DNA of 38,578 nucleotides from IMG/VR virus record IMGVR_UViG_3300038682_000122. The stretch is one strand, 5' to 3'. Shown piece by piece: positions 3,786 to 38,578 of the stretch (positions are counted from its first letter, which is position 1; the number at the start of each line of letters is the position of its first letter). The stretch comes from a virus. The translations under genes were made by a program, and so were the position numbers. The notes below the pieces were generated by a model. The model was not told the origin of the DNA and did not search any database. It worked only from the letters and a program-made list of their open reading frames with translations.

Positions 3786-4018
3786 GGCTTGCCTACCAAT
3801 CCGCAGTAGCCGCTTGTTGATGGGCGAACAGCATCTTGTTGTTCCATCTCGGACATTGCCAAGCCATCCGGTTCATCCCACCGCCAAGCCATGCACTCTG
3901 AGCCTCGGCATCTTATACCCCCTGCAAAGTAAACTGCTTCCCGCCCGTTAATTTCATCCGGGCAGTCGCTTGCCAATGTTTGCGGACACCATTTGTTTTT
4001 TGCTTCTTCCTCAGTCAT
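3782..4018 (-). CDS. Small Cys-rich protein, CMAWRW...GYCGL family, paralog 1
   Basis: Pattern MTEEEAKNKWCPQ...CRGSECMAWRW...GYCGLVGKP. It shares three sequence blocks with 6897..7166 at both protein and DNA level. Confidence 0.65.
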   Translation of the reverse strand: MTEEEAKNKWCPQTLASDCPDEINGREAVYFAGGIRCRGSECMAWRWDEPDGLAMSEMEQQDAVRPSTSGYCGLVGKP

Positions 4019-6896: not shown

Positions 6897-7166
6897 TTAT
6901 GGCTTGCCTGCTAGACCGCAATATCCTTCAAAGGGTTTCGTTGGCAGGGCAAATTCAGCCTTATTTTCCAGCACATATTTTGCTGCACCTTTAGCCGTCA
7001 TGCCGCGCTCTTTTTCGCACTCCTTAAGCGCCGCGATATATTCAGGCGTATTGGCGTTGAGCGGGATCCACCGCCAAGCCATGCAGTCTGAGCCATGGCA
7101 ATTCTCGCGTGTTTCATATTCAATCGCTTGCGGACACAATTTGGTTTTTGCTTCTTCTTCGGTCAT
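6897..7166 (-). CDS. Small Cys-rich protein, CMAWRW...GYCGL family, paralog 2
   Basis: Pattern MTEEEAKTKLCPQ...CHGSDCMAWRW...GYCGLAGKP. Its GGAGGG ribosome-binding site lies within the last codons of ssb. Confidence 0.65.
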   Translation of the reverse strand: MTEEEAKTKLCPQAIEYETRENCHGSDCMAWRWIPLNANTPEYIAALKECEKERGMTAKGAAKYVLENKAEFALPTKPFEGYCGLAGKP

Positions 7167-7167
7167 G

Positions 7168-7632
7168 TTAAGCCCTCCACTCTGGGGCGAAGGGAATGGA
7201 GTCCCCGTCTAGGTCAACACCACCAGCAGGCGCTCCACCTTGGGAAGGTGCCTGATACCCTTGCGCGCCGTTGCCGTGGCCTTGGCTTTCACCTTTAGGC
7301 CCGTCCAGCATCACCAGTTTGGCATCAAAGCCATGCAACACAACTTCGGTTGAATACCGATCATTACCAGATTGGTCCTGCCACTTGCGGGTTTGCAACT
7401 TGCCTTCAATGTAAATCTTAGAGCCTTTCTTCAGAAACCGCTCTGCAATGCCAACAAGTCCCTCTGTGAAAATGGCAATTGTTACCCACTCTGTGCGCTC
7501 GTGCTGCTGCCCGTCTTTCTTCCACTTCTCAGTGCAAGCTAGCCGCAGGTTAGCCACACGGCCACCGTTCCCGAACGTCCTGATTTCAACGTCGGCACCT
7601 AAATTGCCTATTCCAACCCATTTATTTAGCAT
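7168..7632 (-). CDS. ssb: Single-stranded DNA-binding protein
   Basis: OB-fold N-terminus (NKWVGIGNLGADVEIR...RTEWVTIAIF...KGSKIYIEGKLQTRKW), a Gly/Gln-rich linker, and an acidic DLDGDSIPF motif followed by 6 extra residues. Confidence 0.9.
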   Translation of the reverse strand: MLNKWVGIGNLGADVEIRTFGNGGRVANLRLACTEKWKKDGQQHERTEWVTIAIFTEGLVGIAERFLKKGSKIYIEGKLQTRKWQDQSGNDRYSTEVVLHGFDAKLVMLDGPKGESQGHGNGAQGYQAPSQGGAPAGGVDLDGDSIPFAPEWRA

Positions 7633-8125
7633 TTTTATGTTTCCCTTTTTTCAATATTACCGCTTTTTCAGGGCGGTTTTTTATCCAATATCGGACAGTG
7701 CCACTTCCAAGGCCTAATGCCCTTTCAGCTTCTTTTTGACTGGCATAATCTACACCAAGAACTTTTACCGCGTTTGCTTGCTCTGGGCGGGGGTTTTTTT
7801 TGCCGTGCATATGGTGCCCTTTCCCGCTTTTCATAAGCCCACGAGCGGCAGCGTCTTTCATATTTTGAGCATGAGAACCAAGGGACAAATGGTCAGGATT
7901 TATGCACAGCTTATTATCACACGAATGCATAACCTCTAAACCAGTTGGGATTGGCCCTTTATGAAGCTCGTAAGAAAGCCTATGAACCGAAACCGTTTTA
8001 CCAAATGCCTTTATGCACCCGTAGCCATTTTTATATGTGTGACCGTCCCAGTTCCAGCACATAGTTAGCCCATCAAGGACATACCCATCTAAGAGGCGGA
8101 CGAACGGCGGTGCGGCTGATGGCAT
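7622..8125 (-). CDS. HNH homing endonuclease (HNH_3 type) with a C-terminal HTH
   Basis: CWNW...NGYG...VHRLSYELHKGPIP...VMHSCDNKLCINPDHL...HAQN, followed by the HTH-like SQKEAERALGLGSGTVRYWIKN. Confidence 0.85.
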   Translation of the reverse strand: MPSAAPPFVRLLDGYVLDGLTMCWNWDGHTYKNGYGCIKAFGKTVSVHRLSYELHKGPIPTGLEVMHSCDNKLCINPDHLSLGSHAQNMKDAAARGLMKSGKGHHMHGKKNPRPEQANAVKVLGVDYASQKEAERALGLGSGTVRYWIKNRPEKAVILKKGKHKNAK

Positions 8126-8409: not shown

Positions 8410-9098
8410 TAAAAAGCCTCCTTTTCGATTGTTTGATTCACACCGTCTATGTCAGAAACCTTGTGGTTTTTTGACACATAGGTTTCTATAAATGAGGTTA
8501 CAGCCTCACGGTCGTTTTTCGCGATCCAGTGCAGCGCGGCGCGGTGGTCGGTGATTTCATACTTGTGAACCTTGCGCATACCTTTGACTTTATCCTTGGA
8601 AGCGGCGCGCGCGGCCTTGTCAGCCTCTAGCGCTGCCTCTTTAGCGGCCTGTGCTGCACGTTGTCCCTCAAGGTCACTGGCTGCGGCTTCACGCGCTACA
8701 CGCTCAGCCTCTAGCCGGGCGGCGTTGGCTTCTTCCCATGCCTTGCGCTCGGCGGCTTTCTTTTCCGCTGCAAGTTTGGCTTTGAATGGGGCGCAGGTTG
8801 CGACAAGAGCGTCACGAATGCGGGTCAGGTCATCAAGCGTTGGCTTCCATCGTGCTTTCTCAGCCTTCCATTCATCATAGAGAGGGGCAGCGGCTGATTT
8901 CTCTGCCAGCCCAACCTCTTTTAGCGCTTCCTTGATACTTTTGGTTAGGCCATCCACAACCTCCAACTGTTCGGCGGTTTCAATTACCTCGCCATCGGTC
9001 CAGTTTTCAGCTTCGGTGATAACCGCATCAAATGGCGCTAAAGCCTCGGTGATGGGGTCAGGCGGGTTGTTGTGGCCTATGGTGGTTATCTTGTTCAT
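8409..9098 (-). CDS. Hypothetical Ala/Glu/Lys-rich coiled-coil protein (N-terminus IGHNNPPDP)
   Basis: ORF trimmed to the ATG at 9098, which lies 7 nt after an AGGAGAG site that overlaps the erf stop. Confidence 0.55.
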   Translation of the reverse strand: MNKITTIGHNNPPDPITEALAPFDAVITEAENWTDGEVIETAEQLEVVDGLTKSIKEALKEVGLAEKSAAAPLYDEWKAEKARWKPTLDDLTRIRDALVATCAPFKAKLAAEKKAAERKAWEEANAARLEAERVAREAAASDLEGQRAAQAAKEAALEADKAARAASKDKVKGMRKVHKYEITDHRAALHWIAKNDREAVTSFIETYVSKNHKVSDIDGVNQTIEKEAF

Positions 9099-10500: not shown

Positions 10501-10568
10501 TGTTTCATTCCTTGTTGCTATGCCCTCAGTATGCACACATAAAATACATACGCAAGCAAAAAAATCGG

Positions 10569-10639: not shown

Positions 10640-10819
10640 ATGCTAAAGGAAATTCAGGAAGCTATGGAGGATCGCAGCGTAAAGAAGATGGCGAAGAAGT
10701 CACTTCTTTGTGAGGAAACATGGTATAAAATCAAAAACGGCAAGCCTGTGAATAAAACATCACTTAAGCGCGCCGCACAATATTTGGGCCTTGAATGGCA
10801 AGAAGCCCATAGCGAATAG
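10640..10819 (+). CDS. Cro-like small HTH regulator (59 aa, absent from the ORF track)
   Basis: AAAGGAGG lies 5 nt before the ATG at 10640. Translation: MLKEIQEAMEDRSVKKMAKKSLLCEETWYKIKNGKPVNKTSLKRAAQYLGLEWQEAHSE. It is the first rightward gene. Confidence 0.6.
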   Translation: MLKEIQEAMEDRSVKKMAKKSLLCEETWYKIKNGKPVNKTSLKRAAQYLGLEWQEAHSE

Positions 10820-10979
10820 GGGGGTATCTTCCTCTGGCGTTTCGTGTGCGTCGGTTAACCCAAATCCAATGCAAGCGAGTCCCCCCACTGATTTCATTAT
10901 TCGCACTAATTGGTAAACGCAGCGCTGCCGGAGCGATAGAAGGCACACAAATTCAAGAGATACTCGAAGGGATGATAGA

Positions 10980-14674: not shown

Positions 14675-15238
14675 ATGACTAGAGATTTACCAACAATTGA
14701 AACATTACGCAAGCTTTTACGCTATGAACCGGACACGGGGAAGTTATATTGGCGTGAGCGCAGTTTAGATATGTTCCAAAACAATGGGGGCAGGTATACT
14801 GCTGAACGTAATGCGAAAATATGGAACACGAGGTTTTCTGGTAAAGAGGCATTTACAGCCTTCAATGCCGGTTACCGTCATGGGCAAGTATTTAGGATTA
14901 AGCTTCGTGCGCATCGTGTAATATGGATGATGGTGCACGGGGAATGGCCAGAAGAAATAGACCACATAAACCATAACAGGGGCGATAACCGGATAGTTAA
15001 TCTTAGAAACGTTTCAAGGGCTGTGAATATGAAAAACAAGCCTATGCAGGTTAATAATACAAGCGGGTGCGTAGGTGTAACGTGGGATAAGTCGCGGAAT
15101 AAATGGAAGGTTCGAGTCCACGTAAAAGGCAAGTCAAAATTCATAGGTGATTTTTCAGAAATTGAAGATGCGATAAGCGCCCGTAAAGATGCGGAACCTA
15201 TAAGCAATTATCACGAAAATCATGGAGCGAAACCTTGA
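14675..15238 (+). CDS. HNH homing endonuclease with an AP2 DNA-binding domain
   Basis: AHRVIWMMVHGEWPEEIDHINHNRGDNRIVNLR (HNH) plus SGCVGVTWDKSRNKWKVRVHVKGKSKFIGDFSEIEDA (AP2). It is inserted between the helicase and primase genes. Confidence 0.85.
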   Translation: MTRDLPTIETLRKLLRYEPDTGKLYWRERSLDMFQNNGGRYTAERNAKIWNTRFSGKEAFTAFNAGYRHGQVFRIKLRAHRVIWMMVHGEWPEEIDHINHNRGDNRIVNLRNVSRAVNMKNKPMQVNNTSGCVGVTWDKSRNKWKVRVHVKGKSKFIGDFSEIEDAISARKDAEPISNYHENHGAKP

Positions 15239-16172: not shown

Positions 16173-16212
16173 TTGCAATCCCTAGGCCATTAGCCTATAT
16201 TGAGGGTATAGA
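16173..16212 (+). promoter_or_regulatory. Promoter with a conserved 19-nt core, copy 1
   Basis: TTGCAA (16173-16178), 16-nt spacer, CTATAT (16195-16200). The core CCTATATTGAGGGTATAGA at 16194-16212 is identical to 18196-18214. Confidence 0.6.
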
Positions 16213-16231: not shown

Positions 16232-16414
16232 ATGAAACTAGCACAGGCTCGCAAGATAGCTAAAACCGTAAAAGACGACCCAAAATGGGCGCGAGATTAC
16301 TTATCAACAGATGATTTGGCTGACGCTTTTGGCAGGTTGGATTACAACGCCAATCGCAATTGGAATGATGGCGACAAAGAATTGGCACGCACCATTTGGG
16401 ATTTTCATGCGTGA
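16232..16414 (+). CDS. Hypothetical protein
   Basis: 60-aa ORF preceded by AAGGAGAGACAAG. Confidence 0.5.
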   Translation: MKLAQARKIAKTVKDDPKWARDYLSTDDLADAFGRLDYNANRNWNDGDKELARTIWDFHA

Positions 16415-16459
16415 TATTCTGGTTAGGCCAGTTTCGGCTGGCCCTTCCTGAAGACCAAC
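16412..16459 (+). other. Stop-codon-anchored conserved hairpin element, copy A
   Basis: The element begins at the TGA (16412). The stem GGCCAG (16426-16431) pairs with CTGGCC (16438-16443) around the loop TTTCGG. It is 38/48 identical to copy B, with compensatory stem changes. Confidence 0.65.
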
Positions 16460-16619
16460 CACACAGCAACAAAAGGACTTATCTAACGCTTTATATTGTA
16501 TCAATAAATTCCGGTGCTAACCGGTTGGCGCGTCTACTTTGTGACGAATGCCAGCTTGTAGCCGCAGAACGCGCTTGTAAGGCCGCAGGCTTGGCTTGTG
16601 ACGTGCAGGAGGTTGAGCA

Positions 16620-16730
16620 ATGAACCTTCCCCAGATCACAGCGGACACGGCCCCAGAGCCTACCGTTCTAGCGGCATTGGCCATTGGCGCCGCGCTTGCT
16701 TTCATCATTGCAACAATTGCCACGAAATAA
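16620..16730 (+). CDS. 36-aa single-TM peptide (below the ORF-track cutoff)
   Basis: GCAGGAGG lies 7 nt before the ATG at 16620. Translation: MNLPQITADTAPEPTVLAALAIGAALAFIIATIATK. Confidence 0.4.
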   Translation: MNLPQITADTAPEPTVLAALAIGAALAFIIATIATK

Positions 16731-16742
16731 AGGATTTAGACT

Positions 16743-16985
16743 ATGACAACAATAAAACAAGCGGCACACATAGAATTGCGTCTGCACGTTCACAGCCAAC
16801 TGATGGAGGTATTCATGCTGCAGTGCGGGGTTGATCGTGATGAAGCCAGTGTGTTGGCCTATGGGCGCATGAAGGATTGGAGCGCGGCCAGAAGCCGCAA
16901 GGTCAAAAGCTACATCAACAACGGCTTTTTTGATCACTGCCATAATCCGCAAAATGTTGCGCACGTGCTGGATGAAATCGCCTGA
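16743..16985 (+). CDS. Hypothetical protein
   Basis: 80-aa ORF with AAGGA upstream. Confidence 0.5.
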   Translation: MTTIKQAAHIELRLHVHSQLMEVFMLQCGVDRDEASVLAYGRMKDWSAARSRKVKSYINNGFFDHCHNPQNVAHVLDEIA

Positions 16986-17030
16986 TCTTTTGGCTAGGCG
17001 CGTTGCGGCGCGCCCTTCCTGAATATCAAC
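16983..17030 (+). other. Stop-codon-anchored conserved hairpin element, copy B
   Basis: The element begins at the TGA (16983). The stem GGCGCG (16997-17002) pairs with CGCGCC (17009-17014) around the loop TTGCGG. Confidence 0.65.
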
Positions 17031-17045
17031 ATTGAAAGAAATGAA

Positions 17046-17219
17046 ATGACCCCGCAACAATTCAAAGAGATACGTGAGCAGCTTGGCCTTTCACAACCAG
17101 AACTGGCCAAGATATTGCACAAGGATAAAGGCACAATCAGCCGCTATGAGCGAGGCTTGCGAGGGGTTAGCTTTGAGCTGGCGTTTTACATGCGAAATCT
17201 TTTGGAGGAAACACAATGA
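17046..17219 (+). CDS. XRE-type HTH regulator (57 aa, absent from the ORF track)
   Basis: Translation: MTPQQFKEIREQLGLSQPELAKILHKDKGTISRYERGLRGVSFELAFYMRNLLEETQ. This is a classic HTH_3 pattern. The stop overlaps the next ATG (ATGA). Confidence 0.65.
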   Translation: MTPQQFKEIREQLGLSQPELAKILHKDKGTISRYERGLRGVSFELAFYMRNLLEETQ

Positions 17220-17671: not shown

Positions 17672-18195
17672 CACCAGAAACCATAGCCCGCATATCCCGC
17701 AGCTTGAGCATTATTCCCCGGTGGGCTGGCAACGTAACCCGCGAGTTTTACGTTTCGGATCATTTGTTGATTGGCCTAGCATGGCTGCAATATCAGGGGG
17801 CACCCGTTGAGGTTCAACGCGCCTGGTTGATGCACGACGCGGTAGAGGCTTGGACCAGTGACGTGCCAACGCCATGCAAAACGGATGATTTCAAATCGCA
17901 GGAAAATGATCTCCTCTTAGATATGGCCATGAAAATTGGCGTGAGTTTTGATGCACTATACAGCCCAACCGTCAAGCAATGCGATTTAGAAATGGCAGCA
18001 GCCGAGGATTCAGTTATCCATTATTCCCCGTGTGGCACTTATGGCCGCGCCCCTGATCACCTGGTTTACATGATTGAAAACCGCCCTCAGCAAACATGGG
18101 CAGAACGGCAAGCTGAATTTAGCCGGGTGTGGGGAGAAATGTTTAGCGAGGCGAAAATAAATGAAAATAGGGGGTTTACATTTGGTTACGCGTAA
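17668..18195 (+). CDS. HD-domain phosphohydrolase-like protein (YfbR-type 5'-nucleotidase-like)
   Basis: RW...VSDHLLIGLAWL...LMHDAVEAWTSDVPTPCK fits the H...HD...D pattern. Confidence 0.45.
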   Translation: MTPETIARISRSLSIIPRWAGNVTREFYVSDHLLIGLAWLQYQGAPVEVQRAWLMHDAVEAWTSDVPTPCKTDDFKSQENDLLLDMAMKIGVSFDALYSPTVKQCDLEMAAAEDSVIHYSPCGTYGRAPDHLVYMIENRPQQTWAERQAEFSRVWGEMFSEAKINENRGFTFGYA

Positions 18196-18214
18196 CCTAT
18201 ATTGAGGGTATAGA
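18175..18214 (+). promoter_or_regulatory. Promoter with a conserved 19-nt core, copy 2
   Basis: TTTACA (18175-18180), 16-nt spacer, CTATAT (18197-18202). The core at 18196-18214 is identical to 16194-16212. Confidence 0.6.
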
Positions 18215-18632: not shown

Positions 18633-18656
18633 GCCATTCCTTCGGGGGTGGCTTTT
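18633..18656 (+). terminator. Rho-independent terminator
   Basis: GCCATTCC-TTCG-GGGGTGGC forms an 8-bp stem (including 2 G-U pairs) with a TTCG tetraloop, followed by TTTT. It lies directly after the stop at 18632. Confidence 0.7.
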
Positions 18657-18661
18657 CCCTA

Positions 18662-18689
18662 TTGCTTTTTGGCTAGGCCGTGGTAATAT
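18662..18689 (+). promoter_or_regulatory. Candidate promoter of the late/structural operon
   Basis: TTGCTT (18662-18667), 16-nt spacer, TAATAT (18684-18689). It lies about 130 nt upstream of terS. Confidence 0.45.
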
Positions 18690-18817
18690 GCTGGTGAGGG
18701 TTTTGGACCGCCACAAGCGAGGTGCTATGATATGGCAGCACGACACCCCTCAACAAATCGAAAGGACGGTGATCTTTTGTATCTATTAGGTGAAACTTTA
18801 ACGGAGGAGTTTACATA

Positions 18818-26803: not shown

Positions 26804-26830
26804 AGCGGGGCTGTAATGGCCCCGCTTTTA
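26804..26830 (+). terminator. Rho-independent terminator after the capsid genes
   Basis: AGCGGGGC (26804-26811) pairs with GCCCCGCT (26819-26826) around the 7-nt loop TGTAATG, followed by TTTTA. Confidence 0.8.
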
Positions 26831-37957: not shown

Positions 37958-38559
37958 CCAAGAAAGCACTCTTTATTCACTGCCTTGCAACGCCAGCGGA
38001 CTTTATGGAAGGTCGGCCAGTTGAGGAAGTGGTTGCCACGGTTAAGCGTTGGCACCTTGAGCGGGGATGGTCCGACATCGGGTATGCTAAGATTGGGCAC
38101 CGCGATGGCACTTCGGCAGATGGTCGCGACAAAGACAATGACGGTGATGTTTATGAAGAAACCGGCGCACACGCCAAAGGCTACAATGTCAGCGGAATTG
38201 GTATCGCGCTGGTTGGTGGCAAGGGAAGCAAGCGCACTGACAAATTCAGTGACCATTACACCGAGGCGCAGCGCCAGTGGCTTTGGGATGAAATCGACGC
38301 AGTGCGCGCCCGCTACGGTGACGATATTGAGATTCGGGGCCACAATGAAGTGAGCAGTAAGGCGTGCCCTGGCTTTAATGTGCAGGAGTTCTTGGCCGAA
38401 GGTCGCCCGCGCAAATCAACCAAATCAACCACACTAGCCGCTACAGGCAGCGCTGCTGCCATTGTCGGGGCCGTTGCCGCTGATCTGCCTTCATGGGCGT
38501 ATGTGGCGATTGTGGCGGCTCTGGTAGGCGCGTTTATTATATGGAAGGTGAGAAAATGA
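37954..38559 (+). CDS. Endolysin: N-acetylmuramoyl-L-alanine amidase (T7 lysozyme / PGRP type) with a C-terminal TM anchor
   Basis: The ATG at 37954 follows AGGAGA and overlaps the upstream stop (ATGA). Zn-ligand context IHCLATP...GHNEVSSKACPGF. C-terminal WAYVAIVAALVGAFIIWKVRK. Confidence 0.8.
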   Translation: MTKKALFIHCLATPADFMEGRPVEEVVATVKRWHLERGWSDIGYAKIGHRDGTSADGRDKDNDGDVYEETGAHAKGYNVSGIGIALVGGKGSKRTDKFSDHYTEAQRQWLWDEIDAVRARYGDDIEIRGHNEVSSKACPGFNVQEFLAEGRPRKSTKSTTLAATGSAAAIVGAVAADLPSWAYVAIVAALVGAFIIWKVRK

Positions 38560-38578
38560 AAACCGAAGTGAACAAACC
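38502..38578. repeat. Terminal direct repeat, copy 2 (identical to 1..77)
   Basis: Exact 77-nt match to the window start. Confidence 0.9.

Follow-up and report, generated by a model that had tools for sequence, protein, structure and literature searches.

The window analysed in this study is the whole 38,578-nt stretch of viral DNA recorded in IMG/VR as IMGVR_UViG_3300038682_000122, and the element of interest is a 51-nt cassette that occurs in it twice, at 16409..16459 (copy A) and 16980..17030 (copy B), both on the + strand. Each copy lies at the end of a small open reading frame (ORF) and can be folded into a hairpin. Both copies are located in a hypervariable segment between the primase and terminase genes, which differs among relatives of this phage.

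Upstream of the cassettes lies the promoter P1 (TTGCAA-17-TATATT; 16173..16211, +, hexamers 16173-16201), whose spacer contains the palindrome TAGGCCATTAGCCTA and which has the family-specific GAGGGTATAG on its 3' side. The order after P1 is ORF60, copy A, 205 nt without a called gene, ORF36, ORF80, copy B, the gene HTH57, ORF151, and ORF175, the product of the last resembling a deoxynucleoside monophosphate phosphatase. Judged from the sequence, P1 is predicted to drive this rightward accessory-gene operon with both cassettes. The first gene, ORF60 (16232..16414, +), is an orphan, and so is ORF80 (16743..16985, +), which was found in this phage only. ORF36 (16620..16730, +) encodes a hydrophobic peptide 75% identical to ORF38 of contig L056 and is part of a module that starts after copy A. 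HTH57 (17046..17219, +) encodes an XRE-family helix-turn-helix (HTH) protein; its gene begins 16 nt 3' of copy B, in line with the preliminary description of this locus, which had placed copy B directly upstream of an HTH gene. A second promoter, P2 (18175-18203, or to 18213 with its downstream element; +), shares an identical CTATATTGAGGGTATAG and a similar ribosome-binding site with P1 and carries a different palindrome, GGTTACGCGTAACC. It precedes an operon of ORF76 and the ribbon-helix-helix (RHH)-like ORF50, which ends in a canonical terminator.

Boundaries of the cassette and its position at a module junction

The preliminary description comprised two 48-nt units starting at the TGA stop codons of ORF60 and ORF80, with 38 identical positions counted by eye. 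Both starting points were reproduced, and the recomputed identity was again 38/48. The homology extends 3 nt further in the 5' direction, over the alanine codon (GCN) preceding TGA, and stops at CAAC, resulting in 40/51 identical positions between copy A (GCG-TGA ... CAAC) and copy B (GCC-TGA ... CAAC). The copies have the same orientation and are 571 nt apart. Each of them supplies an orphan ORF, unrelated to that at the other copy, with its final codon (Ala) and its UGA stop: the first TGA triplet of copy A is the stop codon of ORF60, and the TGA of copy B is that of ORF80. No similarity was detected between ORF60 and ORF80, which ruled them out as paralogues. In both copies, an in-frame TAG is found 9 nt 3' of the TGA.

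The edges of the cassette are sharp. Aligned in register, 12-nt blocks have 9-10 identical positions within the unit, as compared to 2-5 in the adjoining outer blocks. The pair is the best direct ungapped 51-nt match genome-wide, with a chance expectation of 1.5e-6 for pairs at 40/51, and only two other pairs in the genome reach at least 36/51, both of them paralogous gene starts. Furthermore, a degenerate 33-nt pattern matched these two sites only and none of 100 shuffled sequences. Conserved flanks, as claimed earlier, were found in so far as the 12-nt 3' flank is identical in the two copies, but a conservation above that of the rest of the unit was not significant (p ~0.06).

The 5'-flank motif TGGYTAGGC occurs at six sites on the + strand (735, 8942, 13459, 16420, 16991, and 18670) and at none on the - strand, with 0.3-0.5 sites expected. 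The significance of this excess is modest, because 9-mers occurring at least three times are common in this genome, and the motif is not enriched in relatives. Similarity to the cassette's entire 5' half is seen in 18660-18680 and 8932-8951. Among the direct repeats of the genome, the cassette is followed in rank by 3878-4018 and 7068-7166 (-), which are ~90% identical; starting with ATG (MTEEEAK...) on the - strand, they appear to be paralogous small-gene starts in the leftward operon.

The stretch 3' of copy A proved informative about the cassette's position. An exhaustive HMMER search with the frame crossing the uncalled stretch returned a single protein, P0003 of contig L056 (E = 8e-7). 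The matching region, 16486..16623 (+), is a conserved, uncalled small coding region 67% identical to the 43-aa P0003 (L056 1480-1611), with ACG in place of the L056 ATG. The differences between the window and L056 in this gene (ORF43) are mostly synonymous, which indicates a real gene overlooked by gene callers. In L056, the homologues of 16486-16727 are ORF43 and ORF38, which immediately follow a sigma-70-like promoter. At the nucleotide level, the window and L056 are homologous from ~16457 onwards, within the last bases of copy A, and the same point in L056 lies just 3' of the -10 hexamer of the predicted promoter, approximately at the expected transcription start. As the end of copy A coincides with the start of the L056-homologous module, the cassette is a junction element between ORF60 and a module found elsewhere without the cassette.

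In the closest relative, L002, the segment from P1 to the ORF151 homologue is swapped for another ORF, of 52 aa, and an ORF-free stretch of ~300 nt. The latter (L002 7285-7593), at the site equivalent to copy A through HTH57, contains a long imperfect stem, CTGCACTCTGGCGGCGCGCC ... GGCGCGCCTCCAGAGCGCAG; it had no match in Rfam and may be a non-coding RNA.

Relatives of the cassette itself were searched for at several levels. The covariance-model search proposed in the preliminary description was performed with model R1 over the window and 50 related loci (~540 kb; 10 retrieved by primase and 40 by terminase protein), and only the two copies were found. The cassette is absent from these primase and terminase relatives, though the promoter type is common to them, and none of the 50 loci carries a repeated hairpin family of its own. 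Exact-pattern scans, which are sensitive to near-identical copies only, gave one chance match inside a structural gene for TAGGC-N12-GCCCTTCCTGAA in IMG/VR, and for GGYTAGGC-N12-GCCCTTCCTGAA one chance match each in JGI metagenomes and 185,579 GTDB genomes, in coding sequence and without a hairpin. The 3' and 5' halves, searched separately in IMG/VR, matched 35 and 107 loci, respectively, none with more than 30/48 identity and none with the hairpin. A blastn search with copy B against GenBank phages yielded short chance matches only. Similarly, no relatives were detected for ORF60 and ORF80 in IMG/VR, or for ORF80 and HTH57 in a set of 5.8 billion proteins. All other assemblies and contigs of this phage were 100% identical. 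In the whole window there was no Rfam match at gathering thresholds; in the cassette region, up to E = 10, the best sub-threshold matches were DUF2815 RNA (18.5 bits vs. 41.2) and CRISPR-DR27 (21 vs. 35), both with E = 1.8. ARAGORN predicted no tRNA or tmRNA. The preliminary description had regarded lack of conservation in relatives as evidence against a functional structure. Formally, this lack was observed, but because the relatives are devoid of the whole variable segment and not because the copies are degraded in them.

The same boundaries would also be expected of a functionless recombination joint, an explanation we consider unlikely. The 51 nt would be leftover boundary sequence, and the hairpin would owe its retention to chance or to templated mutation within the palindrome rather than to selection. 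Consistent with such a scar are the sharp edges, the unrelated upstream ORFs, the module adjoining copy A that is present elsewhere without the cassette, and the variability of the segment among relatives, as well as flanks that are statistically no more conserved than the rest of the unit. Additionally, the phage encodes an Erf-type annealing protein, for which ~50-nt repeats are long enough, and promoter-early stem-loop (PeSL) cassettes mediate shuffling of this kind in T4-type phages (PMC4122927). On the other hand, neutral direct repeats 571 nt apart should be prone to deletion, and the identical register at two stop codons suggests a use connected with translation termination. A further argument against a scar comes from the divergence of the two hairpins, described below.

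Hairpin structure and divergence between the copies

The perfect 6-bp stems reported earlier, GGCCAG/CTGGCC in copy A and GGCGCG/CGCGCC in copy B, were found as described, and the two inner stem pairs are altered in both arms between the copies in a compensatory manner. Folding of the sense-strand RNA revealed a hairpin larger than first described, with 15 pairs in each copy and the stop codon included (positions are counted from the T of TGA as 1). In copy A, this is an interrupted hairpin of ~46 nt whose base takes in the U and G of the ORF60 stop; copy B has the same architecture, and its basal stem UGAU/AUCA includes the ORF80 stop. The basal pairs are U1-A46, G2-C45, and U4-A43, the first two formed by the U and G of the UGA. 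Above them, a lower stem of five pairs (U6-A41, U7-A40, C8-G39, which is U8.G39 in copy B, G10-C37, and G11-C36) surrounds a U.U mismatch, followed by a 3x3 internal loop with UUA or CUA facing CUU. The upper stem is GC-rich and comprises 7 bp, from G15-C32 to U21.G26, with a UNCG cap that reads UUCG in copy A and UGCG in copy B.

The upper stems amount to about -12 to -13 kcal/mol. For the upper stem-loop of copy A (GGCCAGU / UUCG / GCUGGCC; 16426..16443, +), with seven pairs including the closing U.G, the pairing probability is at least 0.9 in a context of 60-150 nt. In the same context, the upper stem-loop of copy B (GGCGCGU / UGCG / GCGCGCC; 16997..17014, +) reaches 0.2-0.47 because other GC-rich partners compete.

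Standard pairing is retained at 15/15 positions in both copies, with two compensatory pairs and one change from C-G to U-G; none of the ten differences between the copies breaks a pair. In a simulation with ten random substitutions on copy A, all 15 pairs survived in 0.16% of the trials, and all pairs stayed intact along with at least two double changes in 0.05%, both figures being inflated by the derivation of the structure from those same two sequences. A shuffle control on the two-row alignment (129/500) had no discriminating power. The earlier statement that the covariation suggests a selected structure thus stands for its first half, as the divergence does keep the structure; the step to selection is weakened by the number of sequences (two), by the shuffle control, and by possible templated mutation. 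For the recombination scar, the combination of 22% divergence with 0/10 pair-breaking changes remains an awkward observation. On the antisense strand, 14/15 and 13/15 pairs can form, as compared to 15/15 in both copies on the sense strand, since each G.U turns into an A.C mismatch. This asymmetry mildly favours a sense-strand RNA as the folded form.

Explanations involving translation were also considered. Because the L056 ATG reads ACG in the window, the conserved coding region 3' of copy A needs an upstream start, and the only in-frame NTG upstream is the GTG at 16411. It is conceivable, if improbable, that the hairpin of copy A acts as a translation gate: it would hide the GUG (GUGA, overlapping the ORF60 stop) of a 70-codon ORF, at which only ribosomes ending ORF60 would reinitiate, and copy B would be the truncated start of a paralogous gene. 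The frame of this candidate ORF70 (16411-16623) is open from GTG 16411 to TGA 16621-23 and has an ATGA overlap with the ORF36 start. Its codon-usage score is +0.17, as compared to -0.22 +/- 0.18 for spurious same-strand frames and 0.37 +/- 0.13 for long genes, and its C-terminal 43 codons correspond to the conserved gene described above, which is real and differs from L056 mostly at synonymous sites. In the hairpin base, both U and G of this GUG are paired, and the -1-frame peptides of the two copies are similar (VIFWLGQFRLALPEDQ vs. LIFWLGALRRALPEYQ), three of the differences being synonymous in that frame.

Several observations speak against the gate. The basal pairs of copy A have a predicted probability of at most 0.02, and L056 carries the gene without the hairpin-encoded N-terminus. 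According to our own arithmetic, the 25 extra open codons would arise by chance with p ~0.3, and three of four single-base changes being synonymous corresponds to p ~0.05 per frame, which we call non-significant. In copy B, the frame has a stop three codons upstream, CTG in place of GTG, and ends after 17 codons, leaving 20 codons between stops. At least one copy is therefore non-coding, and coding cannot explain both; as the sole cause it was rejected, copy B being untranslatable. Coding may matter for copy A in the form of a termination-reinitiation gate. Programmed -1 frameshifting was dismissed as well, as copy A offers only U UUU, and copy B has no slippery site and meets the -1-frame stop three codons upstream.

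Recoding of the UGA, in analogy to the SECIS element of E. coli fdhF, would lead to selenocysteine insertion or to read-through that adds four residues before the in-frame UAG. UGA is the stop codon of both ORFs, and its distance is 11 nt to the start of the upper stem and 9 nt to the in-frame UAG in either copy. A UGA-to-stem distance of 11 nt matches the geometry of bacterial SECIS elements. However, the extension would consist merely of selenocysteine or tryptophan and three residues that differ between the copies (YSG vs. SFG), no SECIS-like Rfam match was obtained even at E = 10, and both the UGA and the UAG simply belong to the duplicated unit. We regard recoding as extremely improbable.

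Possible roles of the cassette

In agreement with the preliminary description, the hairpins are not canonical intrinsic terminators. They are GC-rich and have stems of 6-7 bp at the energies given above, but the stem is followed by CUUCCUGAA without a U run, and the terminator scan listed neither site, whereas it listed canonical ones elsewhere. Genuine terminators with U tracts are located at 18633-18670 and 26804-26826. The former (18633..18670, +), at the end of the P2 operon, combines a stem of 8 bp with a UUCG loop and U runs; the 5'-flank motif of copy B, TGGCTAGGC, occurs behind it at 18670.

The reading we rank first, though with less than even confidence, is that the cassette is a sense-strand mRNA stem-loop at module junctions, serving as a barrier to decay or a processing site and as an insulator. 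Directly observed are the shared sequence and its limits, a divergence that leaves the structure intact, the missing terminator features, and the position at a junction, whereas all that concerns RNA ends, stability, and insulation is inferred. In this scheme, an endonuclease would cut the A/U-rich or A/C-rich leader 3' of each copy and 3'-to-5' exonucleases would halt at the hairpin, which would leave the upstream cistron with its stop codon intact and its 3' end protected. Base pairing between the two modules on either side would also be prevented by the hairpin. On the DNA level, the repeat would mark joints where unrelated gene modules recombined, thereby doubling as a recombination joint, and could aid further shuffling via the Erf-type recombination system of the phage. 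The C(UUCG)G hairpins of T4, the RNase III sites of T7, and repetitive extragenic palindromic elements (REPs) show that a barrier or processing mode of action is common.

Several points weigh against the stem-loop reading. There are two copies only, in one genome, and the other assemblies of the phage, being 100% identical, add no variation. No homologue was found in the databases and loci searched. In equilibrium folding of the wider context, the hairpin of copy B is populated only 20-47%, and the fold z-scores are modest (-1.0 and -1.7). The compensatory changes could have arisen by templated mutation within the quasi-palindrome, without selection. Furthermore, a plain exonuclease barrier would not need a stop codon anchored in the same register. 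As an orphan pair in a single uncultured phage, the two copies have the value of a lead rather than a finding. Should the cassette function as an mRNA element, it would represent a portable intercistronic stem-loop outside the T4 and T7 groups that insulates and joins shuffled accessory genes, which would be relevant to the assembly and regulation of variable gene islands, often anti-defence, in phages.

The closest precedents are hairpins of other phages. T4 C(UUCG)G and T7 early-region RNase III hairpins are GC-rich, repeated, intercistronic in polycistronic phage mRNA, and do not act as terminators; in T7 RNase III sites, an upper and a lower stem are parted by an internal loop over approximately two helical turns. 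The cassette resembles them in its GC-rich, repeated UNCG-type hairpin and in its two stems with an internal loop, which comprise 21 rungs here. It differs in the number of copies (n = 2), the weak lower stem, the closing U.G instead of C-G, and the stop codon in the base.

REPs are imperfect palindromes located within ~15 nt of stop codons, which can stabilise the upstream mRNA and interfere with translation termination; they form host-genome families of hundreds of copies with a GTAG head and a cognate RAYT transposase. The cassette is likewise an imperfect palindrome close to a stop codon. It was nevertheless rejected as a REP element, having no GTAG head and two copies only, in a phage, and one chance coding match in the GTDB exact-pattern scan, which reports near-identical copies only.

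An integron attC site, in which the cores 5'-RYYYAAC ... GTTRRRY-3' pair as the R box, was also rejected: GTTAGGC agrees with GTTRRRY, yet it is found 5' instead of 3', and the 3' GACCAAC or TATCAAC fits the inverse core only partly, the order being reversed. No integrase was seen among the scanned ORFs. As a sigma-54 promoter, TGGC-N8-TTGC in copy B is one base too long, and copy A is without a GC element.

PeSL cassettes of T4-type phages are short, conserved regulatory units composed of a terminator stem-loop and a strong sigma-70 early promoter (PMC2839356, PMC4122927). They are found in hyperplastic regions next to ORFans and mediate module shuffling (PMC4122927). The likeness here lies in a short stem-loop cassette in a variable region beside ORFans, at a joint of module exchange, with copy A adjoining a module found elsewhere without the cassette. 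A PeSL proper was ruled out, since neither unit contains a promoter-like hexamer pair or a U tract and the phage is not T4-like. Taken together, the cassette is of a known kind, the intercistronic stem-loop cassettes of phage operons, but belongs to no known family.

The position of copy B next to HTH57 raises the alternative that the cassette is a binding site for a phage regulator. The hairpin, as RNA or DNA, would be bound by HTH57, the RHH-like ORF50, or an unrecognised antiterminator, tuning translation, stability, or read-through of the accessory operon; we consider this possible, although on the unlikely side. From its sequence, HTH57 is a candidate regulator of P1, and a binding to the hairpins is speculative. 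The layout of the operon resembles an acr-aca unit, in that a strong promoter with a spacer palindrome precedes small orphan ORFs, behind which a small HTH gene is located. Additionally, there are resemblances to the operators: the conserved hairpin base UAGGC...GCC repeats the TAGGC/GCCTA half-site of the P1 palindrome, the 5' flank TGGTTAGGC is one mismatch away from TGGTTACGC, the left half of the P2 palindrome, and the 5'-flank motif occurs again after the terminator of the P2 operon at 18670. These resemblances are, however, 5-9-mers identified post hoc; TAGGC is not enriched genome-wide (36 sites on the + and 42 on the - strand), and 9-mers seen at least three times are common.

HTH Aca proteins (Aca1 and Aca2) bind RNA hairpins in 5' untranslated regions (5' UTRs), and RNA motifs also occur between genes of anti-defence operons (PMC13551039). 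The hairpins described here are comparable to the Aca1/Aca2 motifs in that they lie in the mRNA of an operon of small ORFs and an HTH gene with a palindromic promoter, at sites between genes, and partially resemble the operator (PMC13551039). In contrast, they follow stop codons instead of covering a ribosome-binding site in a 5' UTR, and the upstream ORFs are not known Acrs. HTH57 itself is a generic XRE protein: its Pfam matches are HTH_3/HTH_31 only, its best PDB matches are unrelated regulators, with Aca3 only at E = 0.52, and by these Pfam and PDB matches it could be assigned to none of the Aca families. Outside this phage, no homologues of HTH57 were found, and the hairpins have no Rfam match. 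A narrower version, in which the hairpins are operator mimics with a stem base copied from the P1 half-site and the downstream XRE protein binds both the promoter DNA and the intercistronic RNA hairpins, appears doubtful to us. If true, it would extend the Aca1/Aca2-type dual control of DNA and RNA to an unrelated HTH protein and to stop-codon-anchored sites in an accessory, possibly anti-defence, operon. More generally, if the co-encoded HTH protein binds the cassette, the newly described group of HTH proteins recognising both DNA and RNA hairpins would become broader.

The binding of N to nut sites is a further precedent for a regulator of this type. The lambda nut site combines the linear element boxA with boxB, a 5-bp stem with a GNRA-like pentaloop, and two copies are present per genome. 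A nut-like arrangement is seen in the cassette, with the U-rich linear UGAUCUUUU, a spacer, and the hairpin, in two copies, each 3' of a small promoter-proximal gene and with a variable stem but preserved loop and flanks. Compared to the boxA consensus CGCUCUUA / UGCUCUUUA, UGAUCUUUU in copy B matches at 7/9 and UGAUAUUCU in copy A at 5/9 positions. Unlike in nut, the loops are of the UNCG type and not GNRA-like (UUCG/UGCG, or the hexaloops UUUCGG/UUGCGG), they sit on stems of 6-7 bp, and both copies share one transcript, whereas the leftward operon has none. No match to an antiterminator family was seen among the scanned ORFs; N proteins are not recognisable by sequence.

Further features of the genome

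Positions 1-77 and 38502-38578 form an exact 77-nt repeat at both termini, indicating a complete genome of 38,501 bp that was assembled circular (or is terminally redundant). The gene order starts with a leftward recombination operon including Erf, an exonuclease, an HNH endonuclease, a single-stranded DNA-binding protein, and NinB. The rightward replication module comes next, with an initiator-like protein, a helicase, an HNH endonuclease, and a primase, followed by the run of small ORFs and the small and large terminase subunits. The large rightward ORFs 3' of the terminase genes are presumed to be structural genes. The terminase is at most 45% identical to those of Rhizobium and Bradyrhizobium phages, and there is no close cultured phage.

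P1 and P2 belong to a promoter family composed of a -35 hexamer, a 17-nt spacer, (T/C)ATA(T/C)T, and GAGG(G/A)(T/C)ATAG, each promoter having its own spacer palindrome. Sites of this family were found at 16173-16211 (+), 18175-18213 (+), and ~10518-10565 (-) in the window, and in L002 (7053-7101), L022 (5434-5482), L038 (527-575), and L041 (4841-4889). The promoter type is thus common to relatives, and the gene content downstream differs. A second -10-like element is located 11 nt after the first, with the Y co-varying between both elements; it may serve as a regulator site or as a sigma-dependent pause element. Another possible promoter, TTGCTT-16-TAATAT with TGGCTAGGCC in its spacer, was read by eye at 18655-18690, where it overlaps the U tract of the P2-operon terminator just 5' of the terminase genes; it is absent from the list of the consensus scan.

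The two HNH endonuclease genes are located at 14675-15238 (+) and 7622-8125 (-). One of the endonucleases carries an AP2-like domain and is inserted between helicase and primase. Both genes look like homing-endonuclease insertions, in the replication and the recombination module. Finally, ~160 nt without ORFs (10821-10979) are found 3' of the cro-like first gene (10641-10820) of a rightward early operon. This stretch is flanked by GGGGGG ... CCCCCC and could form a long-range structure or a regulatory leader.

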